The notes: generated by a model from the sequence alone, not told the origin. A stretch of DNA of 62,947 nucleotides, filler included, from Collodictyon triciliatum (GCA_043381765.1; 10 parts of 10 records of this genome joined end to end with filler, not necessarily neighbours in it); one strand, 5' to 3'. Shown: positions 6,261 to 52,075, counted from the first letter of the whole stretch. Numbers and translations: made by a program.

Positions 6261-6458
6261 GTATCTATTCAGGCCCTTTTTTTTTTGCATGCGCCGAATT
6301 GTTTCTATTTCTATTTCTATTTCTATTTCTATTTCTATTTCTATTTCTATTTCTATTTCTATTTCTATTTCTATTTCTATTTCTATTTCTATTTCTATTT
6401 CTATTTCTATTTCTNNNNNNNNNNNNNNNNNNNNNNNNNNNNNNNNNNNNNNNNNNNN

Positions 6459-6470
6459 TTAATTAATTAA
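6459..6470. other. Artificial contig linker TTAATTAATTAA flanked by N runs (also at 12971, 19480, 25989, 32482, 38990, 45497, 52019, 58519)
   Basis: The identical six-frame-stop 12-mer sits inside N runs at a regular spacing of about 6.5 kb. Confidence 0.97.
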
Positions 6471-6514
6471 NNNNNNNNNNNNNNNNNNNNNNNNNNNNNN
6501 NNNNNNNNNNNNNN

Positions 6515-6608
<94 letters not shown>

Positions 6609-6764
6609 AAAAAAAACAAAAAAAACAAAAAAAAACAAAAAAAATTAAAAACCAAAACAACAACGATTTACCCCATCCCCTCTTGAAAGAAAAAGATATA
6701 TGATCAAGAGGCAATAAAATATTCACCTTATCATTTAGGGTCAAGTCATAACTACCGAATAACA

Positions 6765-9700
6765 ATGGCCATACATTTTTCATCAACACATATGCTTCTG
6801 ATAGGTAAGTTATATTTTAATATCAAATGGTATTAAAGCTTGCTGAATTCCTCGCCATACAGCATTTCTCGCAATCTGAGGTTTTTTTTTTGTTTCTTCC
6901 TTTCAATTTATGTAATTTGAATTTTAGAAAGATTTATCCTTGTACATTAGGATTAATTATCTGCAGTAAAGCTTGTCATGTTGAAGGAGAAGAAAATCAA
7001 GTCTACACTATCGGTAGCCCTGGCCCAGTCAGCAGTGTTTCGGTTTCTCCTGATGGTTCAAATATTGTCTCTGGTAGTGTCGATGGAACAATCAAAATTT
7101 GGAATTTTTCAGATGGGGCTTTGATTCGCACATTGACTGGGCACATTTCTGGCACTTACAGTGTTACCGTTACTCCTGATGGTTCAAAAGCTATCTCTGG
7201 AGGTGGTGATAATACAGTTAAAATATGGACCATTTTTGATGGAAATTTGATTCGCACATTGTCTGGGCACACTTCTAGTATTTACAGTATTGCTGTTACT
7301 CCTGATGGTTCAAAAATTGTATCTGGAAGTGCCGATGGAACAATCAATATTTGGAATATTTCAGATGGAGCTTTGATTCGCACATTGAATGGTCATACTA
7401 ATAGTGTTCTCAGTGTTGCGGTTTCTCCTGATGGCTCAAATATTATATCTGGAAGTGAGGACAGAACAATCAAAATTTGGAATCTTTCAGATGGAGCTTT
7501 GATTCGCACATTGACTGGGCACATTTCTGGCGTTTCCAGTGTCACTGTTACCCTTGATGCTACAAAAATTATATCTGGAAGTGAAGATGCAACTATAAAA
7601 ATTTGGAGCCTACCAGATGGAGGTTTAATTCGCACATTGAATGGTCATTCTAGCAAAGTTTCCAGTGTTTCCGTTTCTTCGAATGGCTCAAAAATTATAT
7701 CTGGAAGTGACGATGCAACTATAAAAATTTGGAGCCTACCAGATGGAGGTTTAATTCGCACATTGAATGGTCATTCTAGCAAAGTTTCCAGTGTTTCCGT
7801 TTCTCCTGACGGGTCAAAAATTATTTCGGGAAGCTATGATAATACAATCAATTATTGGAATCTTTCAGATGGAAATTTACTTCAAACTTTGGAAAATCAT
7901 TACAACAGCATCTCCAGTGTTGTTGTTACACCTGATGATTCAACAATTATTTCGGGAAGCTACGATAATACCATTAAAATTTGGAACCTTTCTGATGGAG
8001 CTTTAATTCGCACATTGACTGGCCATTCAAGCAAAGTTAACAGTGTCGCTGTTACACCTGATGGTTTAAATATTGTATCTGGAAGTGAGGATAGAAGAAT
8101 CAAAATTTGGAATCTCTCTAATGGGGGTCTAATTCGCACATTGATTGGTCACACAGGCTGGGTATGGAGTGTTGCTGTTACACCTGATGGTTTCAAAATT
8201 GTTTCAGGAAGTGGCGATTATTATAGAAGTGTTGATTACTCAATCAAAATTTGGAATTATTTTGACGGATCACTTATCAATACATTAGTCGGGCATATGT
8301 TTGCCGTTCAGAGCGTAACGGTAACTCCTGATAGTTCAAGTATTGTCTCTGGAGGCGGTTCAGATATAAAGATTTGGAATATCTTTGACGGGACCCTAAT
8401 AAATACCCTGAAAAGCCATCATAGTAATGTTAGGAGTGTTGTTGTTACCCCTGACGGTTCAAAAATCGTTTCCGGAAGCTACGATAATACAATTAAAATC
8501 TGGAATCTATCTGATGGAGCGTTGATTCGAACTTTGACACGGGTAACATTTTCTGGTCATGTTTATTGCGTTGCTGTTACTCCTGATAGTTTGAATATTG
8601 TTTCTGGAAGTTACAGCGGGACAATCTATATTTGGAATATTTCAGATGGGGCTCTCACCAAATCATTGACTGGTCACACCAAAAATGTTAATGGGGTTAC
8701 TGTCACCCTTAAGGGCTCAAAAATCGTCTCTGGCAGTGACGATTTTTCCACAAGGATTTGGAATATTTCGAATGGAACCTTAATTCGCACATTGAGAGGC
8801 AATTATGGAGCGGTTAATAGCGTCACAACTACTTTTGATGGATCAAAAATCATTTCTGGAAGGGACGACCAAACGGTTGAAGTTTGGAATTTTTCTGATG
8901 GTGTCTTGATTCACAAATTGACAGGTCATGCTGGTTGGGTCTCATGTGTCTCTGTTTTTCCCGATGATTCAAAAGTTGTTTCAGGAAGTCAAGATTGTAC
9001 AATAAAAATCTGGAATCTTTCTGACGGAGCTCTGATAACGACATTACGCGGACATAAATATGACGTTTTCAGTGTTGTTGTCACTCCTGATGGCTCAAAA
9101 ATTGTTTCTGGTAGCGGCGATAGTACAATTAAAATTTGGAATAGCTCTGGCGGAACTTTAATTCGTTCATGGACTGCGCACACTACTTATGTTTACACTG
9201 TCGCCGTTACTCCTGATGAATTAAAAATTGTGTCTGGGGGTAATGATAACTTTATCAAAATTTGGAATCTTTCTGATGGAACTTTAATTCGTTCCTGGAC
9301 TGCGCACACTACTTATGTTTACACTGTCGCCGTTACTCCTGATGGATTAAAAATTGTTTCTGGAGGTGGCGATGGAACGATTAAAATTTGGAATCTTTCT
9401 GATGGTTATCTGATTCGTACGATCCATGATAACTATGGTGTTTCCTGGGTTGTTGTTACACATGATGCTTCGATGATAGTCTCTGGAAGTGGCGATTCTT
9501 CAATAAAAACCTGGAATTTTTCCGACGGAGCTTTGATACGTAGATTGACTGGTCATACTGGATATCGTGTTGAAGATATTGCAATTTCTCCTGATGACTC
9601 AAAAATTGTTTCTGCAAGCAACGATAACACCATCAAAATTTGGAAAGTGTGCAAATATGGCTTTTACTTAGACTGGCTGTCGGACGAATGCAAGATATGT

Positions 9701-12394
9701 CCAGAGGGAACTTATAATAATCCAAACGATATGAATTCGTGCATCAGTTGTACCCCTGGAACTTTTAATCCAAATAATGGCTCATTTAGTGAGTTCAATT
9801 GCTTACCGTGTGATGTTGGAGAATTTAATCCATTTTCGGGACAATCCTTCTGTCGGACTTGTCTCCCTGGAACTTACAACCCAAGCAAGAGATCAAGTTC
9901 GCTATACAATGCTTGCATGGATTGTTTCGCAGGTTCGTATGGGGATAAATTTGGATCGAAATCATGCACCTTGTGCCCATCAGGGACCTATAGTATGGAT
10001 GTGAGGTCGTCTTCGAGTTCTTCGTGCATTGAATGTGAGCATGGATCGTATAATGGAGCTGAAGGACAATCAAGGTGCCAAGACAGTAAACCTGGATTCT
10101 ATGTTCCCAATAAAGGTGCATCTGCTCCTTCTCCTTGCCAACCAGGAACATTCTCTAATACTACTAAAGCTGTAGAATGCAATAAATGCCCAGCTGGTAC
10201 ATTTAATCCTGATGTTGCATCGGCGAGTATTTATGGGTGTCAGCCTTGTCCGAAGGGAAGATTCTCATCAAATTCAGGAAATTCAACATGTGACTTATGT
10301 CCTTCTGGTTCTTACAATGAATATGCAGGCCAAACCGAATGCACTAATTGTACCAATGGAACATATAATCCAAAGTTTGGTTTAAGCACTATTGATGCAT
10401 GTATTGAATGCCCGAAAGGGACATACGGGACTGAGCAAAGAGATGAATGCATTTCATGTCCAGATGGAACATTTAATAACATAACTGGGCTATATAGAAA
10501 TACGTCTTGTCTTTTATGTCCAAAGGGAACCTACAGTTCAAAAAGAAGTGCTTCATGCAGTTTATGTCCCACTCGTTCGTCAACAACTAATGAAGGATCC
10601 AAATCAATTGATGATTGCAAATGTATCAAAACATATGTATCAGTAGATAGCATATGTACTTGCCCCCCAGGAAAATTTGAGGATGAGGATATGTGTGTTG
10701 CGTGCAGGGTTGGTTCATATAAATCAACTTATGATACTAATTTCTGTCTCTCCTGCGAGGATAAATTCACCACAAATAATGAAAGTTCAGTGAGCCCAAC
10801 GGAGTGTATTTGTAAACCTGGGTTTGAGTTGAGAAACTCTACTTCCACTTCCATTCCAAGTTGTGAATGCAAACCAGGGTGGTATGAAAACCAGAAAAAT
10901 TGTTACGAATGTCCCATAGGAACTTACAATGAAAAATATGGACAAACTTTTTGCATTGACTGTCCTGAAGGATTTACATGCCGTGGAAGTATCAATCCTG
11001 TTGTCTCATCAGGATATTGGCAGGCTCCTAGTTCAAATGGTGAATACATTGCTTACAAATGCATAAATAAAGACGCTTGCAAAGGAGGAAACAATACTTG
11101 CGCTGAAGGATACAGCGGAGCTCTATGTAGTGTTTGTGAAAAGGGATATGGAAAGACAGGCGTGTTTTGTACTAAATGTCCCAGCAAAGAAACGGGAGGA
11201 TTCCTAGTCTTCCTTAGTATTGCTGCACCCTTGGTTTTTGTTTTATATATGATAGAGCAATCAAGACAACCTAAAACTGCCAACATACAAAATTTAAAGA
11301 CTCTAGCAACTCATTTTCAAGTCTTGTCTTACTTGGCTAATTTTGATGCAGATTGGAGCTCTACTGTCATTTCAATAATGAAAATTCCAGCGCTATTTTC
11401 GTTTTCTCTTTCTGTCGATACTTATCCAATGGAATGTAGATTTGAAATAACAATTTATGACAAGGTGTTTTATTCAATTATGACTCCACTAATTTTGATA
11501 GGAGTGGTAATTCTTATAATAGCAATAAAAACGATATGGAAGCTAAAAACTGACCTGGCCCACACCAAGAACATCACTTCATTCAATATAATACATGAAT
11601 TTATATATTCCATCCTAGTTATGCTTTTCTTTGTTCATCCAACAATAACGTCATCGATTTCAAGCATATTCCGCTGCGAGAATTTTGGAGAGGAAAGTTA
11701 CTTGAAGGCAGATATGTCGATTATGTGCAATGATGCAACATACCTCGCATGGAAAACAATTGCTTTGATCTACGTGATTCTGTATTGCTTTGGTGGCCCG
11801 CTTATTCTTGCTGCGTACATGTTTTACAAAAAAGTGTCATTGATTGATTCGACCTCGAATTCTTATAACTTACTACGATTTTTAGTCGACGGTTATACCA
11901 AAGAATGCTATTACTGGGAGATTGTAACTATGGTGCAGAAGCTTATTGTGGTCGTCATCAGTGCATTCTTTTCCCCAGCTCTTCAAATTTACTTTGGGTT
12001 ATGGCTGCTTTTAATTAGTATTATACTATCCCTCTACTTCAAACCTTTCATGTTTGATATGCTGAGAAAGTCGCAACTGTACTCGATATCAGTTCTATAT
12101 TTTACGTTGATGACAAGCCTCTTATTCAAATATTCAGACATTAGCAATGCAATCGAGTACTTGCTAGTTGTACTGGTTGTTTTCTCCAACGGACTCATTG
12201 CACTTGATTCAGTAATCAAAGCTGGACCCACTGTAGTGGCTTTGTTTGGCGGAAAAATGGTAAGTTTGGCAACATTTGTTTTCGATGCTGTGACCGACTC
12301 ATCTGCAACCACAAACTTTAAAGGAAAATGGACAAACTCGAAAAAAAGAAATGAGATGAAGAGTTTCGTTGCAAGTTCAGAACCGCTGCTTTAA
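6765..12394 (+). CDS. Secretory-pathway membrane protein: signal peptide, 21 WD40 repeats, GCC2/GCC3 (ephrin-receptor-like) Cys-rich repeats, TRP-like multipass TM domain
   Basis: Exon 1 (6765-6804) splices via GTAAGT...TAG (6805-6950) in frame to the long ORF, giving MAIHFSSTHMLLIGLIICSKACHVEG. WD40 repeats LIRTLxGH...SGSxDxTIKIW span about 7015-9645. CxxGTY/FN repeats span about 9650-11185. About 8-9 hydrophobic segments follow, with YLKADMSIMC and GYTKECYYWE motifs. Confidence 0.88.
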
Positions 12395-13512
12395 AAACGA
12401 AACGAAACGAATCAAAAACTCGCCCAAAACCCACACCCATCATTTTATGGCCTTTTTTTTTTTTTTAAAAAAAAAAATACAAAATCAAGTAACTGGTCTG
12501 TGGCTAAAGTGCGCGAAGAGAAGTGAAGGAATTCTTTCATTTTTTTGGTTTCTTTTCAACAGTTATTTGAGAGGAAACAAAGCCGAAGGGAATTCTTTCA
12601 TAAAAGAATTAAGAGAATAAAATGAAATAAAGGACATAAAATCAACTGATATTCCTGGTTCAATTCGGAATACACTTAATTCTTTGAGTTTATTCTGATC
12701 ACTTCTCAATTTAACAGCAGAGAAACGGTAGTTATATACTCAAACTAAGCGATTAGCTTGAAAGACAAAGAAATACGAAAAAAAGAAAATGAAAAAAATG
12801 AAAGAAGAAAATGAAAAAAGAAAACGAAAGAAAGAAAAAGAAAGAAAAAGAAAGAAAAAGAAAGAAAAAGAAAGAAAAAGAAAGAAAAAGAAAGAAAAAG
12901 AAAGAAAAAGAAAGAAAAAGAAAGAANNNNNNNNNNNNNNNNNNNNNNNNNNNNNNNNNNNNNNNNNNNNTTAATTAATTAANNNNNNNNNNNNNNNNNN
13001 NNNNNNNNNNNNNNNNNNNNNNNNNNCAAAAAAACAAAAAAACAAAAAAACAAAAAAACAAAAAAACAAAAAAACAAAAAAACAAAAAAACAAAAAAACA
13101 AAAAAAAAAAAAAACAAAAAAACAAAAAAACAAAAAAACAAAAAAAAACAAAAAAACAAAAAAACAAAAAAACAAACAACAAACAACAAACAACAAACAA
13201 CAAACACCAACAAACAACAAACAACAAACACCAACAAACACCAAAAAACAAAAAAAAAAAAAAACAAGAAAAAAAACGTTGGCTCAAAACCTGCTGGGGC
13301 ATTTTTTGTCTGGCTCCTTCACCCGCACATAAAAAGAAACAGCCAGTTGTTGGTGCGGCGCAACATAATTTGGGTATTCAGTCAGTTTTACCAGGATTGT
13401 ATATTTTTTCCCCCTTATTCGATTCAAAGTGACTGGGCTTGTGTATTCTTCTATTATGGTGCCAATATGAATAGCTTCAACTCAACGATTGTCTACTCGC
13501 GTCGAACTAGGA

Positions 13513-19168: not shown

Positions 19169-19535
19169 CGCCCTGCGCTCTGGGCTTTCCACCTCGGCTT
19201 TGGGCAGGTTCTGCGGTTCTTGAGTGAGTAGCCCTCTTGTTCTTGTTTTTGTTTTTTTGTTTTTTTGTTTTTTATTTTTTGTTTTTTATTTTTTGTTTTT
19301 GTTTTTGACAGCCGCCTGGCGGATTCCGAGTTTGTGGACGCCAAGGGCACACTATTTTTTTTTTTTTTTTTTTTTGGGGGGGAAGGTTTTTAAAACGGGG
19401 GGGGGGGTTGGGTTTTTTGTTTTTTTTTTGTTTTTNNNNNNNNNNNNNNNNNNNNNNNNNNNNNNNNNNNNNNNNNNNNTTAATTAATTAANNNNNNNNN
19501 NNNNNNNNNNNNNNNNNNNNNNNNNNNNNNNNNNN

Positions 19536-19733: not shown

Positions 19734-22700
19734 CTCTCCCAGTTGCCACTTGATATGTCCGTATTGAGCATGATGAAAACGGTTAATATATCGAAAAACC
19801 TGGTATGTAAATCCTCACACGTGAACGATTCACGATATTATTCTAGTTGATATTGCCTATCTTTCGAGTTAATTCATGATTGCATCTATTAAAGAAATGC
19901 ATGTCATCTCGTTAATAATCTACTTTTTAAAAATAAATAAATATAAACTCAGTTCGTGAAGCTTCCAGACTGCATTCAATACTATTCCAGCCTCGTAGAA
20001 CTTGTCATTTGGGGAAACCCCGTAATTTTATTTTGAATTCATACACGAGCATACCTGCTCATAACGAAGTAACCCACACTCAAAAATAATTATTTTTTTT
20101 TTTATTGAAATACACCAGATGAGCGAGCTCTCAGTATGGATAACTACACTACATTATCTAAAAAACCTTGAAATCGAAAGAGGAGGGGAAATATGTATAA
20201 ATAAGGCCCCGGCCGGCATTACTGCTCTCCCTTGTTGGAAAAATGATCAAATTTGGCACGGAATGACTATGAGTTACTCCAAGGCTCTTCAATCACTTGT
20301 ATTAGAGGAGCCATCATATCCGTGCAACGAGGTTATCATGGACAACAGTCATATAACCCCTACTCGAAGGGCATTACACATCTATCCGCCATCGGCTCAT
20401 TCATCACAATTAGTATATGTATGTCTCTCCAAAATGAGCTATTTCTTTTCTTTTTTTTTTTAAAAAAAAACCTTTTATTCAAGTCAAGGAATAAGGAATT
20501 CGTAATACCTCTGAAAGAATTTTAAGCTCCAATTACTACTTGACTTTCTCATTACTTTCTCATGCCAATTTATGTGCTAAACACTTACTGCATTTTAGTT
20601 GCCAAATGTTGTTGTGGAATCACCAGTATCTATGTCGCCATCGAGTAGTTACACGACCTCACCAGATGTATATTACTATATATTGTAAAAAATAAAAAAA
20701 AGAGGAAAGAAATGTCGATTTTGTTTCAATATTCATCCTATTCAAATATTATACAGAACCGTCTTCATGATTTAATGAGCATACCTGAGAAGAAGGCCTC
20801 TCTGAGATACCAATATGTAATCGCATTTATATGATTCTTTCTTTTTTCTTTTTAGCAAATAAAATATAGTCATTATATATCACCATACCTCAGATACGTC
20901 ACGTAATTTTTTTTTCCTTTATTCGATTCAAAGAGATACGTCACGTAATTGAATAGCTAATATTACCCACTAAGGTATGCGATATTCCACCGTGGATTTT
21001 TGATATGCAAGGGCTTACTTATTTGTGCCTGTCTAGTAATAAGGTTCACAGTGCATTTTTTCGGAGCAATACTTTTTTTCCCTCAACAATTACTGAGTTG
21101 TTAGTTTAATGTATTTATAAGTATTTATTTTAATGTTTTATTATAGATATCCATGATTCCAGATTCTATCACAAAATTACAGGCCCTTGAGATTTTAGAT
21201 CTGTCTGTAAACAACGTATTATTCAATCTAAACATCGAGATAATATTGAAATCCCCATCAATTTTTCCAACTATAAAAAAATGATTCATCACGACATTAG
21301 TTAACGCAACTTGTATCCTATCTCTCTAATATTTCGTCGCTTCGGAGTCTTGATTTAAGTCAGAATAAGGTTCATATATTTTTTTCTTCATCTCCATCAT
21401 CACAGTTTTCCAGGGAAAAAGACGTATAAACGATAATTTATTTTTTTTAACAATATTTATATAATTATTAAAAATTTCAACAACAAAAAAGATTTCTGAA
21501 TACCCGACCTGGATAAATCAAATGACGAATATGACATCATTAAACATATCCAACAATATGGTGAGAGCATGTAAATTAGATTGAGTTACCTTATTTTTTC
21601 CGTTGCTATTCGTTTTTGTATATCTGATTATGTCGCTCCTAATTTACACATTTATCTCACAATTGACTCTATCAATCGGCGTTATTTCTTTTCATAGATA
21701 TCAGAATTACCTGATATTAGTCTGAAAACCGGTCATGTACAACATCTAGATTTATCATACAACCAGGTCTTAATCTCTAACCTCAATATAGTAATAAAAT
21801 ACTTTCATCATACAACGTTATTCACTGGCTAGTTTTCATCGTTTTATGTTTTCGCTTTTTTTTTTTAAAAAAAAATATCATGATTATTCATAGATTACCA
21901 ATATCCCAAAGCCCTTATTGTCGTGGGGGAGAAACAAAACATTTTTTATTCAAGGAAATCGACTAAATGATGTACCAAAGAAGATAACCTATGGAAACTC
22001 CCAGCATCTAATCAACTACATGATCGAATCTTCAAAAGGCACTCAAAATTTGGCGCGTGGACAAGTAATCTTGCTGGGAGAGGCTGAATCAGGGAAAACT
22101 ACATTGCTGAAGACAATATCTCAAAAGTCCTTCTTTTTTAACAGCACGATTGACGAGCGCCAGGAACGAACTGAAGGTATTGCCAGAATTGATGTGGATG
22201 ACTTTAATGGCGGAACCTTCAGACGCGGGATCGATGCCAGCTTCTGGGAATTCGGTGGTCAGGAAGAATCTCAAGCTACCTATCCATTATTTCTTGCCCC
22301 AGGAGCTCTTTTCTTGATATTGTATCGATTAGACCAAGGAAAAGAAAGAAACAAGCTGAGGCATTGGGTAACTTTGGTAAACAGATATGCCCCAGGGTCG
22401 GTTCTGTTCTTCGTCGGGACACATAATGATGTAAATATTCCTGAATGTTCAGAGGATATGCTCGCAGAAATAGAGCAAATCAAACTTGAATCGAGCCAAC
22501 ATTTAATCATGAAATCGTCTATACATGTTGATTGCAAGAATGGAATTGGTGTAAAGGAATTAAAAGAGGTAATACATCAAGAGCTGGTGTCCACTGAACT
22601 GTCCATTGTGGCACCAATGTCTTATTCACCACTAAAGGACTATCTGTCTCAAAGGAGTAAAGATGTCATATATTTGAAGACAAGCGATATTTTAAATTAT

Positions 22701-25285
22701 GCGGATGAACGGCTAAAGTACAATCAATTACAATCGGAGTCTGTCTTAAGTTTTTTACACACCAATAAATTCCTTACATGGTACTCATCACATGAATCTC
22801 TCAAGGACATCGTCTTCTTGAATTCGATATTCTTGATGAACGCATTACGCCTGATTTTCAACTTAAGAGGACTAGGCAAGAGTTCCAACGGTTATGTACT
22901 TCTTTCTGAATTGCGGAAAAGTATATTCCAAGGATTTGAAACCCAATTGGATAGTACGGCTTTTGTCTATATAATGGACGTCTTTTATACCTTCGGGCTG
23001 GGTATTAAGTTTAACAAGGAATGTGTAGCATTCCCATCTATGATGGAAACAAGCAGCAATTTAAAGCTCATATGGAACAATATACCAGAATCAGATTGTG
23101 AGTCGGAACTATCAGTTGATTTCGTGTGTGATGGAGAACTGCAGCCACCTGACCAGAGCCATATCATCTCACAAGCATTCCACTTATCCAAGGAATTTTC
23201 ATCGCACTCCCCTCATGAGAATATATTCTTTAAGAATCTTGCTTTGATCCATTTATCGAATATCCCATTAAGTTTTACGGGCACTAGCAAACAGGAAATA
23301 CCACTGGACCTATCGAATAGATGTACAAAGGTTTATGACATTGAGGTATTGATTCAACTATTCTCAAGCAAAACTAGGGTCGTAATCAGAGATTATCCTT
23401 CAGGCGCCTCGGAACCAAAGTTAAACAAATTTCAGCTTCTTGACTACATCAAAAACAGAATATCATCTTATAGAGCTGGTATTGTCCAACAATGCATATT
23501 TGACTGCTATAAATGCCAGGATGAAAATGTAAGCGGGGTCACTATAAATTTGTCAAATTTTGACCAGTTATCAGCTATCAGATGTTCATATGGACATGTG
23601 CTTGATGTAAGGACTTTGAAGAAAGAAGGGGCTTACTCAAAAGGTAAGCTTCTTAAAGTCAAAATATAATGTCCACAATGACTAAATACTTCAAAACAGT
23701 TGAACCAAACGAACTGATGCAGACGGTTTCTGGAAGCTCTAAATTACTGGTAGTCTAACATACTGATTTTAAACATAAAATGCATATTCAACACAGCGTC
23801 CAATTCAAATATATTGCAATTAACTTAATTCTTCTTTCATTTTTTTTTGTCATAGATATCGCCAGCACTTGATTCAGAGGGTTTTTTTTTAAAATCATTT
23901 CCTTTTTTTCTTTCTTTCATATTCTACATTTGATTTACAAGACCATATATGGCCTGTATTACCTACTTAAACTTTCATAAGGATACCTTCCAGTGTCATA
24001 TTTAAAAACATATTAATGAAGATTATCGCACCCTCTTTTCGATTTACTTTAAAATGAAGGCGTTTATGGCCTTATTCTATAATTTCAATTAGACGCCAAC
24101 TATGGGTTGATTGACCACGAATTGAAAGATATCTGGGCCAAACAAGAAGCTGAACTCACGGATTACATCTCGCAAGGAATTTACGGGAGAGTATACCGCG
24201 CAAAATCATACGACGGCAATGAAGCTGTTGTTAAAATTCGGACTATACAACCGATTAGAAATCACACGAGTCACGACATTATGAAATCGCTAATATTAGA
24301 GTGCCAATATATGAATGAATGTCGTGAGTGTCAAAACACAGTCGAGCTTTATTGTGTTTACCGAAAAGATAACGAACTTTATATGGTGCTCGAATATGCT
24401 GGGCTGTCCTTAAAGAAATTAATGGAGAATGGCAAGGAAAGAAAACTGAAACTAATGCACATAGTTCAATATTCTAAGCATATTTGCCAAGGACTTTTGT
24501 TTATGCAATCCAAAAATTTATATCATGAAGACCTAAAAGCAGACAACATCGTGATATCAAACGGGGTAGCAAAGATATGCAACTTTAGGCATGTCACTCG
24601 AAGGGATACTCGACAGGATTGTGGCAATCTGCTGGCCAGGCAAGAAGATTGGGAGGCATATGGGGCACTAAATTGGCAAGCACCAGAGATTCACAATGTC
24701 GTTTGCAAGCTAGCCATAACCAAAACCAAGACAGCAGAAAATGGTGGTGGTTCTGAAGAACCAAGTGTTGGCCATAAAGGTGAGCTAAGCACTGTTTATG
24801 CTCTCGGAGTTGTTGTCTGGTATATGTTTTCTGGTGTGGAACCGTTCCTCGGAGAGCGACAGCCGCAGAAATTCACTTTCCTTGGTACGAGGCCAGATAT
24901 CCCTGCGGAAACCCCTAGGATGATAGAAAAAATGATAAGGTGCTGTTGGAAGCAAAACTATCAACTTCGGCCGGGATTGGAGAAAATCTTTAACTACTTA
25001 CAAACCATTATTGTTCAAAATCTGGCAGTTGAGGAGTCTAAGTTGCAACAGTTCTTTCCTTCGAGCTACGCGAGCCTTGGCGACATGCATCTCGGGGAAT
25101 TCATAGAGTTTCTTCGCGACCATGGGTGTCATCACACAATTGAAGCGTTGAAGGATGAGTCTCCATCGTCCATGCCTGAGATATTGGAAGGTTTTAGCAG
25201 AGGCTCTCTCCCTGAATTTTTCAACATCCCTCAGAAAGAAGCCGTGCTTCTTACCCAATTAGCGAAGGGAAAGAGTTCTGCTTGA
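19734..25285 (+). CDS. Roco protein: LRR - Roc GTPase - COR - degenerate kinase - SAM-like tail; 5' end probably outside the contig
   Basis: LRR exons, then Roc motifs GEAESGKTT, RTEGI, WEFGGQE, VGTHND, and COR-like FLHTNKFLTWY...VFLNSIFL. Linker exons 23699-23749 and 23856-23880 join in frame to the kinase exon (SQGIYGRVY, VVK, HEDLKADN, WQAPE). Confidence 0.88.
20909..20933 (-). mobile_element. Ultra-short retroposed insertion CTTTGAATCGAATAAAGG-polyA in a Roco intron
   Basis: Flanked by the exact 17-bp direct repeat AGATACGTCACGTAATT at 20892-20908 and 20934-20950. Confidence 0.8.
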
Positions 25286-45048: not shown

Positions 45049-46671
45049 CGCTTCTGGACCGGCTGACCCTTTCGGTGTGGATGCATTGGCAGGAGATGGG
45101 CTGGTGAGTTGGGCGGTTGATATGCTCCGAGCCATGGGACTTCTTGCGTCGTTTGCATCGCCTGCATCGCCTGGAAAGGGCGGCTCTCTTCCCACGGGCC
45201 GGCCGAAGTCGCTTAGCATGAGCAGCGTCTCTCGGACGCAGTCTGCGCAGAATCTTTTGCCGGTTGCTGTGCTTGCGCTTGGGGAAACCGGGAACGAACT
45301 TGCTCGATGCTCTGGCTGGGGTGCGCGGGCAAACATCTCGGAGGCGGGGCTTGAGAAGTTTATGGCCAGGCTTGTCTACAGCCCTGTGGTGCTTCTGGAC
45401 CAGTGGGAAGTGAGTCTCGCGTCGGAGGCAAGTGATGCTGGGGAGTTGGCTGNNNNNNNNNNNNNNNNNNNNNNNNNNNNNNNNNNNNNNNNNNNNTTAA
45501 TTAATTAANNNNNNNNNNNNNNNNNNNNNNNNNNNNNNNNNNNNNNNNNNNNCTGGCGGAGACTTCTTCACAAATATGACCCTGTTAAAGAGGTCGAAAC
45601 AAATGCACTCAGCGCAGAACCCGACACATCTTCCATCCAAACCAAAGAGAAAGCAGACTTAACCCCTAGCTGATTTGGGGACCTTTCTCAGGAACACATC
45701 ATCATTTTGTTCATAAAGTGTTAAATGCACAAAACAAGGAGCCTTCAAGAAGAAACTTTCACTATGCCCCAGTTCATATCAAATGGGACACACCAAACAC
45801 CAAGAAGGCCAGTGAAGCGATTAAGACGTGTTCATCGTATATAGATGTCTTGCATGATAGTAAAAACAACGACTTTCTTGGCTCTGTAGACTCCTTTCTT
45901 TGCTGAACCGTTGGTAGTCTATTACTCTCGTGGAGTATGGTTGCTGATCGAGAAACTAAAGCATCGACAATGATACGAACCCGGACTCACTCTCTGGGAG
46001 AAGTTTGGATGCATGGCTGTGCATCTCTTTCTTCAGCGCACCCAGTGTAACCCAGTCCACAGCCTTTGTTTTAAATCCTCTCAAAATCCCAATCGTGCGA
46101 GAGAAATTAAAGAAGCAAAATAAGTGACGCAGTTCACCATAGCAATGGGAAATTGATTAATGTTAATCCATAAGAGTTGCTTTGAATGCAAGAGTGAGAG
46201 GTTGATGTGTCAGAAAACTTTAGCGTGAAGGCAACCACCAAAACAGCCTAGACAAAGAAACAGAGACAGAGATTTCCGGATGAAGAAGCGATGGCAGAAG
46301 TGTCATCTGGGTTCTGAAGAAGAGAGCTTCTCCCTTGGTCGCGGTATTTTATGATTATTTTTTTTATTCTTTCTTTCAATTTTGCGCAGGATGGTGGGGA
46401 TGTTGGCTTTGGTTCGCTAGTCATTGTTTGCACGCGGTATTTTATGAGTTTAATTTGAAACCATTAATTGGACATTTATTACATCCTGTTTAAAAAGACT
46501 GGTGGTCCTGTTTCGCTTGCAGTGAGAAATGGAGAGGTGTTGATAATGACGATACAGGAGAACGATTCCCACCACTCTGGTAGATGGCATTCTGCTTGCT
46601 TTGAATATATGTGAACGGATTTTTATGATTTTTTCCACTAGATAATGAATCACTTTTGCCAACTTCACCAT

Positions 46672-50946: not shown

Positions 50947-52075
50947 GTATATCTTTTTGCCAAAGTACTCGGCTTGACCTTTATGCGTTGCTACTTTTGT
51001 AAAGACGCGTTGGTTTTTCTTTCAAGTCGATCTGCGCTTTGTGCGTCGTGCGCTTCGTGTGCGATTCGGCGGTGTGCCTGACTCGACACCCACTGCCGCC
51101 AAAAGTATTCCATTTGCTTATCATCCATTTATGGAAAATATAATTAAGATGCTAAATTGTTTAAAATTTCATTGTTTTAGCCTTTATTATTCAAGAACTT
51201 GCAATTTAATGATCGATTCACATTTTATAATCGCATGAATTTGGCAGGCGGAGCGCGCACGTGCAATTGAAAACGCCTGTTTTCTCAGTCCCTTTGTTGT
51301 CACCCCGTTGCTCACCAGCGATGCGTAGCATTTTATCGGCGGGCCGCAATTATGCTTGATTTTTTTTTAATGGGCCACTCGAGAGAAATTCTTTCAATTC
51401 TTTTTTCTCATCTAACGCGCCTGAATGAACAACTAACCCCATTCCCGCACCACTCTCGTGATAGCACGCACCGGAGCTTCCATTTTTTTTTTAAAAAAAA
51501 AAAACAATTTTGAAAGAATATAGGTTAAATACAGATACGATTGCCACAAAAACATCATCAGAAAAGATTGCATGTTAGCAGGAAAATTATCTCATGTGAT
51601 TAAATAGTTGCACTCGGGCATTATGCCATGTATGTTGTCTAGTAATAAGCATTAGATGAGAAAATATGGCAAGCCTTTCAGGATTTGTGTTTCTTCAACG
51701 GAGGCCCAAACGCGATTTCAAAGCTATAGAATCTGAACTTATAAAGGAAAATTAGATAAAATAAAAGGGATTATTATCCAAATGGACCTCTTGGTAAAGT
51801 GTAGAGATAAGTCCATGGACTGCTTGGCGCCCTGCGATATCCTGAATGAATTTTTCCTTTTTTTTCTTTTCTTTTCTTTTCTTTTCTTTTCTTTTCTTTT
51901 CTTTTCTTTTCTTTTCTTTTCTTTTCTTTTCTTTTCTTTTCTTTTCTTTTCTTTTCTTTTCTTTTCTTTTCTTTNNNNNNNNNNNNNNNNNNNNNNNNNN
52001 NNNNNNNNNNNNNNNNNNTTAATTAATTAANNNNNNNNNNNNNNNNNNNNNNNNNNNNNNNNNNNNNNNNNNNNT

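Follow-up and report, generated by a model that had tools for sequence, protein, structure and literature searches.

We analysed a 62,947-nt stretch of DNA from Collodictyon triciliatum (GCA_043381765.1), referred to as the window, and found in it a gene that most likely encodes a nine-helix surface receptor of the CRMP type, by analogy with the published architecture of those proteins, topped by a head of 21 WD40 repeats. The gene occupies positions 6765-12394 (+ strand) and is intact, with a spliced coding sequence of 5484 nt, one terminal stop codon and a product of 1827 aa; its host is an AT-rich, free-living protist. From N- to C-terminus the predicted protein consists of a signal-peptide-like segment, the WD40 array, a cysteine-rich stalk, a multi-helix membrane domain and a short tail.

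A WD40 array joined to a cysteine-rich stalk and a membrane domain

The WD40 array lies at 6974-9643 (+; aa 22-911 of the spliced protein) and was split at its conserved Trp residues into 21 units, of which 15 are 42 aa long, five measure 41-48 aa and the first is divergent. Pfam family PF00400 (WD40) matched it in 20 stretches with an E-value of 1.8e-186 (597 bits against a cut-off of 27), and only ~21-35 residues precede the first blade. AlphaFold2 modelling, for which 24 homologues entered the alignment, yielded five models with mean predicted local distance difference test scores (pLDDT) from 88.7 down to 71.4. The best of them, at 88.7, contains 83 six-residue strands arranged in four-stranded blades that close into propellers. 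The 21 WD40 repeats counted in an initial annotation of this DNA are therefore borne out by the division into units, the Pfam match and the model alike. Its grouping of the repeats as three times seven blades did not hold, as the best model divides them 7+8+6.

In that model the first propeller (7013-7894, +; model residues 14-307) has seven blades and superposes on seven-bladed propellers, the second (7892-8896, +; residues 307-641) has eight blades with lower pLDDT at the last one, and the third (8897-9655, +; residues 642-894) holds the remaining ~6. The best Foldseek match of the whole array was 2ymu_A, a "highly repetitive propeller structure" (E = 1.3e-54, 42% identity), which is also the closest solved structure to it. 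The second propeller could be aligned with Tako8, an eight-bladed designer protein, over 312 residues (model residues 307-642) with a root mean square deviation of 1.3 Å, and ODA16 and Rsa4 align over residues 307-641. No match to residues 642-894 was present among the best 50 structural matches listed. With pLDDT values of 68-82 at model residues 600-660, the 7+8+6 split is that of the best model, and it is uncertain where the second propeller gives way to the third. Two units show small irregularities: 6 Tyr-rich residues are inserted into the top-face b-c turn of unit 10 (8150-8167), and in unit 13 the GH dipeptide is absent from its usual place and a 2-residue insertion is found (8546-8551).

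The stalk that follows (9644-11194, +; aa 912-1428) contains 57 Cys in 517 aa and 10 N-glycosylation sequons. In agreement with the Cys-rich GCC2/GCC3 stalk described initially, it is made up of 11-12 stretches of Ephrin_rec_like (formerly GCC2_GCC3), with weaker NCD3G- and TNFR-like signals. At its membrane-proximal end lies a Cys-rich juxtamembrane module, DUF7630 (PF24633; 11057-11179, +), which scored 27.8 bits against a cut-off of 27 and was also found in 9 of 20 members of the membrane-domain family described below. Sequence profile searches of the PDB returned only weak matches to the Cys-rich region of EphA2 and to Notch EGF, and a weak EGF-like signal is found beside the membrane.

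The membrane domain (11195-12238, +) was modelled with AlphaFold2 from the C-terminal 481 aa together with 19 relatives. Nine long helices are evident in the model (pLDDT 83.9, predicted template modelling score 0.79), together with a beta-hairpin loop in which two Cys are invariant across the family. A tail of ~50 aa (12239-12391, +) ends the protein; it is basic (7 K+R), disordered (pLDDT below 50 at model residues 453-481) and free of Pfam domains, so that a multi-helix domain followed by a short tail without an enzyme domain, as first proposed, was recovered. The putative inner loops and the tail hold most of the Lys and Arg residues, and the putative outer loops are acidic and carry conserved Cys. 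This distribution fits the positive-inside rule with the ectodomain outside and suggests nine helices in an N-out/C-in orientation, as far as the model allows.

Placement of the WD40 array outside the cytosol

No hydrophobic segment is found from residue 22 to the first membrane helix at ~1430. Since no membrane segment separates the WD40 array from the stalk, both would lie in the same compartment, which for a disulfide-rich stalk implies that the array most likely faces outward or into a lumen. The initial placement of the repeats outside the cytosol is consistent with this continuity, and also with the hydrophobic N-terminus and the loop charges. The WD region carries 17 N-x-S/T sequons. 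At 15 of the 20 unit junctions one of them directly follows the Trp, in a loop that in the model lies on the face opposite the variable residues. Among the aligned homologues, 23 of 24 have 0-2 sequons at these junctions. Judging from these positions, the propellers are probably N-glycosylated on their bottom loops.

The topology arguments fit the lumen of an organelle as well as the cell exterior, and the same protein could accordingly reside in endomembranes, with its WD40 array in the lumen and a role in cargo binding, sorting or the triggering of exocytosis. Toxoplasma CRMPs, in the excerpts available of the two reports describing them, occur mainly along the secretory pathway, reach the surface only transiently and trigger regulated exocytosis (PMC9815656; PMC9670195). 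We nevertheless consider an endomembrane location doubtful in view of the long rigid Cys-rich stalk and of the adhesion-type ectodomains of the relatives (TIG, LRR, FG-GAP). Rigid Cys-rich stalks and ectodomains of the adhesion type are typical of cell-surface proteins.

Gene model and N-terminus

The list of open reading frames (ORFs) contains a single ORF of 1855 codons for this gene, at 6827-12394. A short first exon missed by that list had been proposed, and the sequence agrees with it: ATG 6765 stands in a good context (A at -3, G at +4), a GTAAGT donor follows 40 nt on, a TTAG acceptor is present, and with 6804 spliced onto 6951 the frame is maintained, for a computed product of 1827 aa. 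Exon 1 (6765-6804, +) holds the start codon plus 13 codons, ends on the first base of a Gly codon that the intron interrupts, and encodes the N-terminal half of the signal-peptide-like segment. The proposed intron (6805-6950, +; 146 nt, GTAAGT...TTAG, 28% GC) is predicted from sequence, and exon 2 (6951-12394, +) runs through the stop codon at 12392-12394. Among the in-frame GT/AG pairs, 6805/6950 alone unites a consensus donor with a complete hydrophobic core. Between 6650 and 6765 only two ATGs are found, and the one at 6700 opens an upstream ORF of 5 codons.

In the spliced N-terminus, Kyte-Doolittle hydropathy taken over 9 residues peaks at 3.2 (residues 10-18), and the small-residue site S-K-A comes next. 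This value is within the range of the hydrophobic N-termini found in 49 of 137 Met-starting family members. Provided that the intron is spliced, the N-terminus would thus be signal-peptide-like and resemble the signal peptides of other members of the family.

A large family of receptors with interchangeable ectodomains

A full HMMER pass with the 481-aa domain detected 8349 cluster representatives at E ≤ 1e-3, 2408 at E ≤ 1e-10 and 114 at E ≤ 1e-30. The best family match was a metagenomic fragment of 293 aa (57% identity), and the next, ~30% identical, came from the transcriptomes of Rigifila ramosa and Clastostelium recurvatum. A profile search directed at longer proteins added members from Paramecium, Tetrahymena, Bigelowiella, Aphanomyces, Montipora and Tritrichomonas; the Paramecium and Tetrahymena proteins match the membrane-domain profile at E-values of 4e-45 to 1e-28. 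A metagenome scan with the 481-aa domain found no relative, and one with a 2-sequence alignment returned a single distant 2.5-kb locus (L001), which was uninformative. Ahead of the membrane domain, the relatives carry TIG, FG-GAP, LRR, RCC1-propeller, Ephrin_rec_like and DUF7630 modules (5 of 8 scanned relatives had Pfam matches), and Ephrin_rec_like was extracellular in every relative inspected. In a very large eukaryotic family whose ectodomains are interchangeable, the membrane domain and its juxtamembrane Cys modules make up the conserved core. As the shared core of so large and modular a receptor family, the domain points to a domain swap rather than to the NLR module coupled to a channel that had been put forward.

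The description of the membrane domain as TRP-like and channel-like fared no better. Of the Pfam membrane families only PF06011 ("TRP") shows a connection to the domain, and a weak one: it was found in 2 of 20 aligned relatives (best E = 3.9e-5), in 11-15% of the members of the nearest Atlas clusters and as a precomputed match on protein P0002, and the UniRef name of the Aphanomyces member is "TRP C-terminal domain-containing protein". A Foldseek search of the PDB with the membrane-domain model gave no match at E ≤ 1e-3 and no solved structure convincingly alike, and none of the top structural matches listed was a solved TRP or PKD channel. A relation to PF06011 would hold at most at the superfamily level, and the link to this fungal Flc/TRP-like family does not imply ion-channel activity.

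The closest known architecture is that of the CRMPs (cysteine repeat modular proteins) of Apicomplexa and ciliates and of their homologues in free-living protists. According to the excerpts available of Singer et al. 2023 (PMC9815656) and Sparvoli et al. 2022 (PMC9670195), these proteins have a signal peptide, a modular Cys-repeat ectodomain with Ephrin-receptor-like and EGF-like modules, and a conserved core of two EGF-like domains and nine transmembrane (TM) helices, with the N-terminus extracellular and the C-terminus cytosolic. Homologues are reported there from Dictyostelium, along with expanded and diverse repertoires in free-living species, among them Paramecium and Chromera, and environmental sensing is suggested; in the excerpted preprint version some ectodomains include a modelled six-bladed propeller. 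The receptor shares with CRMPs so described the Cys-repeat ectodomain and the Ephrin-receptor-like modules by the membrane (here 11-12 Ephrin_rec_like stretches), as well as a signal-peptide-like N-terminus if spliced; its C-terminal nine-helix core, N-out/C-in orientation and short cytosolic tail, as predicted from the model and the loop charges, would correspond too. In contrast to the receptor, none of the CRMPs described in these excerpts has WD40 repeats of the GH-WD type, and only in alveolates do CRMPs have their part in rhoptry or mucocyst exocytosis.

Rarity of the combination and relation to other WD40 arrays

A hidden Markov model of the 21 units was run against 158 stored proteins, comprising the best 150 of the 8349 membrane-domain relatives and further precomputed matches, and found WD repeats in none of them. 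With the whole protein as query, 3154 of 8000 scored sequences were significant; among the best 120 matches, which were inspected, none spans both halves, all being WD40-only and covering at most 52% of the query. By these comparisons the union of WD40 repeats with the nine-helix receptor architecture is real and rare, a new ectodomain variant and not a new kind of system.

Literature searches on extracellular, secreted or ectodomain WD40 repeats retrieved only work on CRINKLY4 and a cyanobacterial review. The CRINKLY4 paper, in the portion available, counts the CRINKLY4 propeller and that of bacterial BLIP-II as extracellular WD40 domains. It describes for these plant receptor kinases, similarly to the receptor, an N-glycosylated ectodomain in which a seven-bladed propeller precedes a Cys-rich TNFR-like domain (10.1101/2020.08.10.245050).

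The closest sequences among the matches listed are bacterial WD40 arrays, with up to 50% identity. Unlike the receptor, they are attached to NTPase or to Fn3-like and type IX secretion system (T9SS) modules, and have neither a Cys stalk nor nine helices. For example, a metagenomic protein of bacterial origin (P0252, 1510 aa) contains 12 WD40 stretches that are 47% identical to the receptor units, together with a hydrophobic N-terminus, repeated beta-rich modules and a T9SS C-terminal sorting domain (PF18962, Por_Secre_tail, 39.4 bits); six of its unit junctions read W-N-x-S/T. Given this sorting domain, exported WD40 arrays of the receptor's type therefore occur in bacteria.

That the nearest WD40 relatives are bacterial, at 40-50% identity, would also be expected if a WD40 fragment, possibly bacterial, had been fused in frame to a eukaryotic receptor gene during assembly. 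The contig is only 6.4 kb long and belongs to an unplaced set. Relative synonymous codon usage correlates at 0.32-0.65 between the WD, Cys and TM parts, with a modest r of 0.32 for WD against TM. Identical metagenome contigs cover the Cys/TM half only: in a subsurface-metagenome DNA run, ~2x contigs are identical to 10076-10402, 11026-11312 and 11838-11988, and the pieces that match the WD region are diverged (<90% alike, 23 of 38) and may be paralogues or other WD40 genes. No contig of that run bridges the intron or the WD/Cys junction. On the other hand, the gene forms one uninterrupted 5.5-kb frame, and its framework codons are under purifying selection (omega 0.22, see below) despite saturated synonymous sites. 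GC content at third codon positions (GC3) is low throughout, at 0.28 for the WD part, 0.30 for the Cys part and 0.38 for the TM part, unlike that of a typical foreign insert. The blade junctions carry a lineage-specific N-x-S sequon, and the last WD unit passes straight into the first Cys repeat without any low-complexity or repeat boundary. A chimeric contig is unlikely on these grounds, and to an artefactual fusion as the source of the architecture we give next to no credence.

Variation across blades

Across the units, G5, S35 and W51 of the alignment are invariant, and entropy peaks at columns 20 (3.35 bits), 46 (2.86), 17 (2.75), 38 (2.72) and 22 (2.68), in line with the variation originally noticed after GH and around SGSxDx. 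Mapping onto the model used strand positions from DSSP and not three-dimensional distances. By this mapping, the loop that connects the strands on either side of GH contains columns 17, 18 and 20, and the strand into which it leads has column 22 as its second residue. A conserved Asp sits in the turn between the two strands that come next, with columns 38 and 46 to either side of it. Columns 20 and 22 likewise bracket a conserved Val, 18 positions ahead of the Asp, and this arrangement of the two pairs is exactly the geometry of HET-E codons 7/9 and 25/27. The variable HET-E codons, which are under selection, are placed in the d-a loop and the b-c turn, at the top of the propeller, in the excerpt available of Paoletti et al. 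2007 (PMC1805685), and on the strand mapping the variable positions of the receptor do correspond to these top-face sites, as had been supposed. The combination of residues at the four positions (20/22/38/46) is different in all 21 units. Top-face columns are richer in aromatic (18% vs 8% elsewhere) and polar (45% vs 28%) residues, and almost no aliphatic ones are found there.

DNA identity between units ranges from 49 to 85%, with the highest values in the adjacent pairs r6/r7 (85%) and r18/r19 (84%). The repeat framework had been called nearly invariant, which is true of the protein but not of the DNA. Proportions of synonymous (pS) and nonsynonymous (pN) differences were calculated after Nei and Gojobori by comparing the intragenic repeats over units 2-21, the divergent unit 1 being dropped. 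At the seven top-face columns pS was 0.61 and pN 0.62 (omega 1.02), with both rates saturated, and at the remaining columns pS was 0.57 and pN 0.20 (omega 0.22). At pS values of 0.57-0.61 the synonymous sites are saturated and the repeats are therefore old. The framework is under purifying selection and the top-face sites are randomised; an omega of ~1 at saturated sites fits relaxed constraint and diversifying selection alike and cannot separate the two. The pattern also fits blades that each keep their own fixed surface.

The Podospora proteins HET-E/HET-D and HNWD provide the natural comparison, for they share with the receptor WD units of 42 aa, a conserved framework and variable pairs flanking Val and Asp. 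They differ in having HET and NACHT domains ahead of the WD array, of which the receptor has neither, and in being cytosolic, where the WD array of the receptor is predicted to be extracellular. The initial annotation went further and implied HET-E-style diversification, with the array forming an NLR-type, actively diversifying repertoire outside the cell; repeat shuffling and positive selection would then supply new specificities. Besides the match to HET-E codons 7/9 and 25/27 and the distinctness of all 21 units at the four positions, the similarity within r6/r7 and r18/r19 indicates some duplication or conversion, and the closest sequence relatives are arrays of near-identical WD40 units in bacterial NTPase proteins. 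We nonetheless judge such a repertoire unlikely. HET-E-family repeats are up to 100% identical in DNA and undergo concerted evolution, according to the same excerpt (PMC1805685), of which the receptor units, at 49-85% identity and with saturated synonymous sites, show no sign. The top-face omega of 1.02, at saturated rates, is uninformative on positive selection. Finally, no NACHT or other NTPase domain is present, the WD, Cys and TM parts accounting for the whole protein.

Proposed mechanism and evidence against it

On balance we favour a large multi-pass surface receptor or adhesin in which a WD40 head has been swapped onto a CRMP-like nine-helix core, and regard this as the probable nature of the protein. 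Its signal peptide would be cleaved and the N-terminus would enter the secretory pathway. Three tandem WD40 propellers (21 blades) with glycosylated bottom loops would then stand atop a rigid stalk of Ephrin_rec_like (~12) and DUF7630 modules, followed by the nine-helix membrane domain, N-out/C-in, and the short basic cytosolic tail. The ectodomain module swapped in would be a bacterial or STAND-type WD40 array with high internal conservation. The blade-specific top faces may bind external ligands, namely the surfaces of prey, substrate or conspecifics, and binding may be relayed through the nine-helix core, as proposed for CRMPs.

Several points weigh against this interpretation, the first of which concern the N-terminus. 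Splicing of the gene is predicted from the sequence. The last 43 codons of the intron (6821-6950) are open in the frame of exon 2, with an ATG at 6827; by shuffling, the probability of 43 stop-free codons is ~0.046. A start at 6827 without splicing gives a weaker hydrophobic N-terminus (Kyte-Doolittle value 1.99 over the first 30 residues), and intron retention could provide an alternative N-terminus. If the N-terminus were wrong altogether, through retention of the intron or through a further exon upstream that belongs to a different contig, there would be no functional signal peptide; the WD40 array would be cytosolic, and the Cys-rich region and TM domain would have another arrangement. The contig begins only 250 nt upstream, at a poly(A) run, and eukaryotic WD40 propellers of the GH-WD type are otherwise regarded as cytosolic or nuclear scaffolds. 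However, the 57-Cys Ephrin_rec_like stalk would then be forced into the cytosol too, with no membrane segment in between, the unspliced start also carries hydrophobic stretches, and the splice sites are canonical, with the 6805/6950 pair the only one to yield a complete hydrophobic core. We thus hold a cytosolic array to be very unlikely.

The swapped-head receptor also meets difficulties in its remaining parts. One of the nine model helices (model residues 111-130) is polar and not hydrophobic; the count of nine TM helices and the N-out/C-in topology therefore rest on the model and the charge bias. The 17 sequons of the WD region compare with a composition-shuffled expectation of 12.4 ± 3.0, an excess that is not significant, and the argument for glycosylation is therefore positional and not numerical. 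PF06011 was not detected in the C-terminal 481 aa at E ≤ 1. The protein is likened to CRMPs by their published description and not by sequence comparison with CRMP cores, and its ligand binding and signalling are entirely inferred. As for rarity, the absence of WD repeats from 158 proteins covers only the best 150 of the 8349 family representatives. A Tetrahymena thermophila protein (P0288, 3006 aa) has at residues ~897-1047 a sub-threshold match to WD40_CDC20-Fz (40 bits against a cut-off of 200), so that WD40-like propellers may sit on the receptor core in ciliates, in which case the combination would not be unique. Similarly, a relative of the membrane domain from a Rigifila ramosa transcript (P0014, 2047 aa) has an ectodomain of an RCC1-type propeller with TIG, Ephrin_rec_like and DUF7630, a second propeller of "intracellular" type on the receptor core, which counts against uniqueness.

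Genomic context of the receptor gene

The 62.9-kb window consists of unplaced contigs of similar size, sorted by size and strung together, and is not one stretch of a chromosome. The contigs are separated by nine identical linkers of 100 nt (44 N, TTAATTAATTAA, 44 N) at a spacing of ~6.5 kb, located at 6415-6514, 12927-13026, 19436-19535, 25945-26044, 32438-32537, 38946-39045, 45453-45552, 51975-52074 and 58475-58574. The first two bound the receptor contig on its left and right, respectively. The receptor gene is the sole gene of this contig (6515-12926, ~6.4 kb), which has a ~130-nt poly(A) run at its left end, only ~250 nt from the start ATG at 6765, and simple repeats at its right end. The contigs being unlinked, neighbouring genes therefore give no context for the receptor gene. 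An Rfam scan of the window gave no match, and when the three parts of the protein (WD, Cys and TM) were compared by tblastn with the remainder of the window, 0 high-scoring segment pairs fell outside the gene itself.

Other contigs of the window encode several recognisable domains. An ORF with Roc (Ras of complex) and COR-A domains (21918-23666, +) is followed on the same contig by a protein-kinase ORF (24107-25282, +), and the two are probably a single gene for a ROCO/LRRK-type kinase, interrupted by an intron. NHL repeats, another type of beta-propeller that is often extracellular, are encoded by two ORFs of one contig (46929-47939 and 49193-50311, both -), which are without similarity to the TM or Cys parts of the receptor. 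An ORF for a zinc-type alcohol dehydrogenase/oxidoreductase (33165-34181, +) has a GC3 of 0.76, compared with 0.28-0.38 in the receptor gene and 0.40-0.43 in the Roc and kinase ORFs; its contig may be of different origin or the gene may be strongly biased. Lastly, an FkbM-type methyltransferase domain is found in the ORF at 55453-57021 (-).

Implications for surface recognition

As a tentative proposal, which we think less likely than not, the head could be a WD40 array of STAND/NLR type captured by the protist, possibly from bacteria, where units of this type are found on NTPase sensors as well as on the T9SS-exported protein. It would have been adapted to the secretory pathway by acquiring an N-glycosylation sequon in nearly all of its bottom loops, and would now be the ligand-recognising head of a CRMP-type receptor through which encounters with prey, microbes or kin trigger exocytosis or uptake. 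If this were true, the receptor would do outside the cell what WD40-based immune sensors do inside it. A surface head of 21 glycan-decorated WD40 blades, if confirmed, would mean that WD40 propellers can function under the oxidising and glycosylating conditions of the secretory pathway. CRMP-like receptors, whose ligands and signalling mechanism are still unknown even in Toxoplasma and Plasmodium, would gain from it a striking extra module. Since the top-face residues differ from blade to blade and the framework stays constant, the array would offer a convenient natural scaffold for probing the ligands of such receptors.

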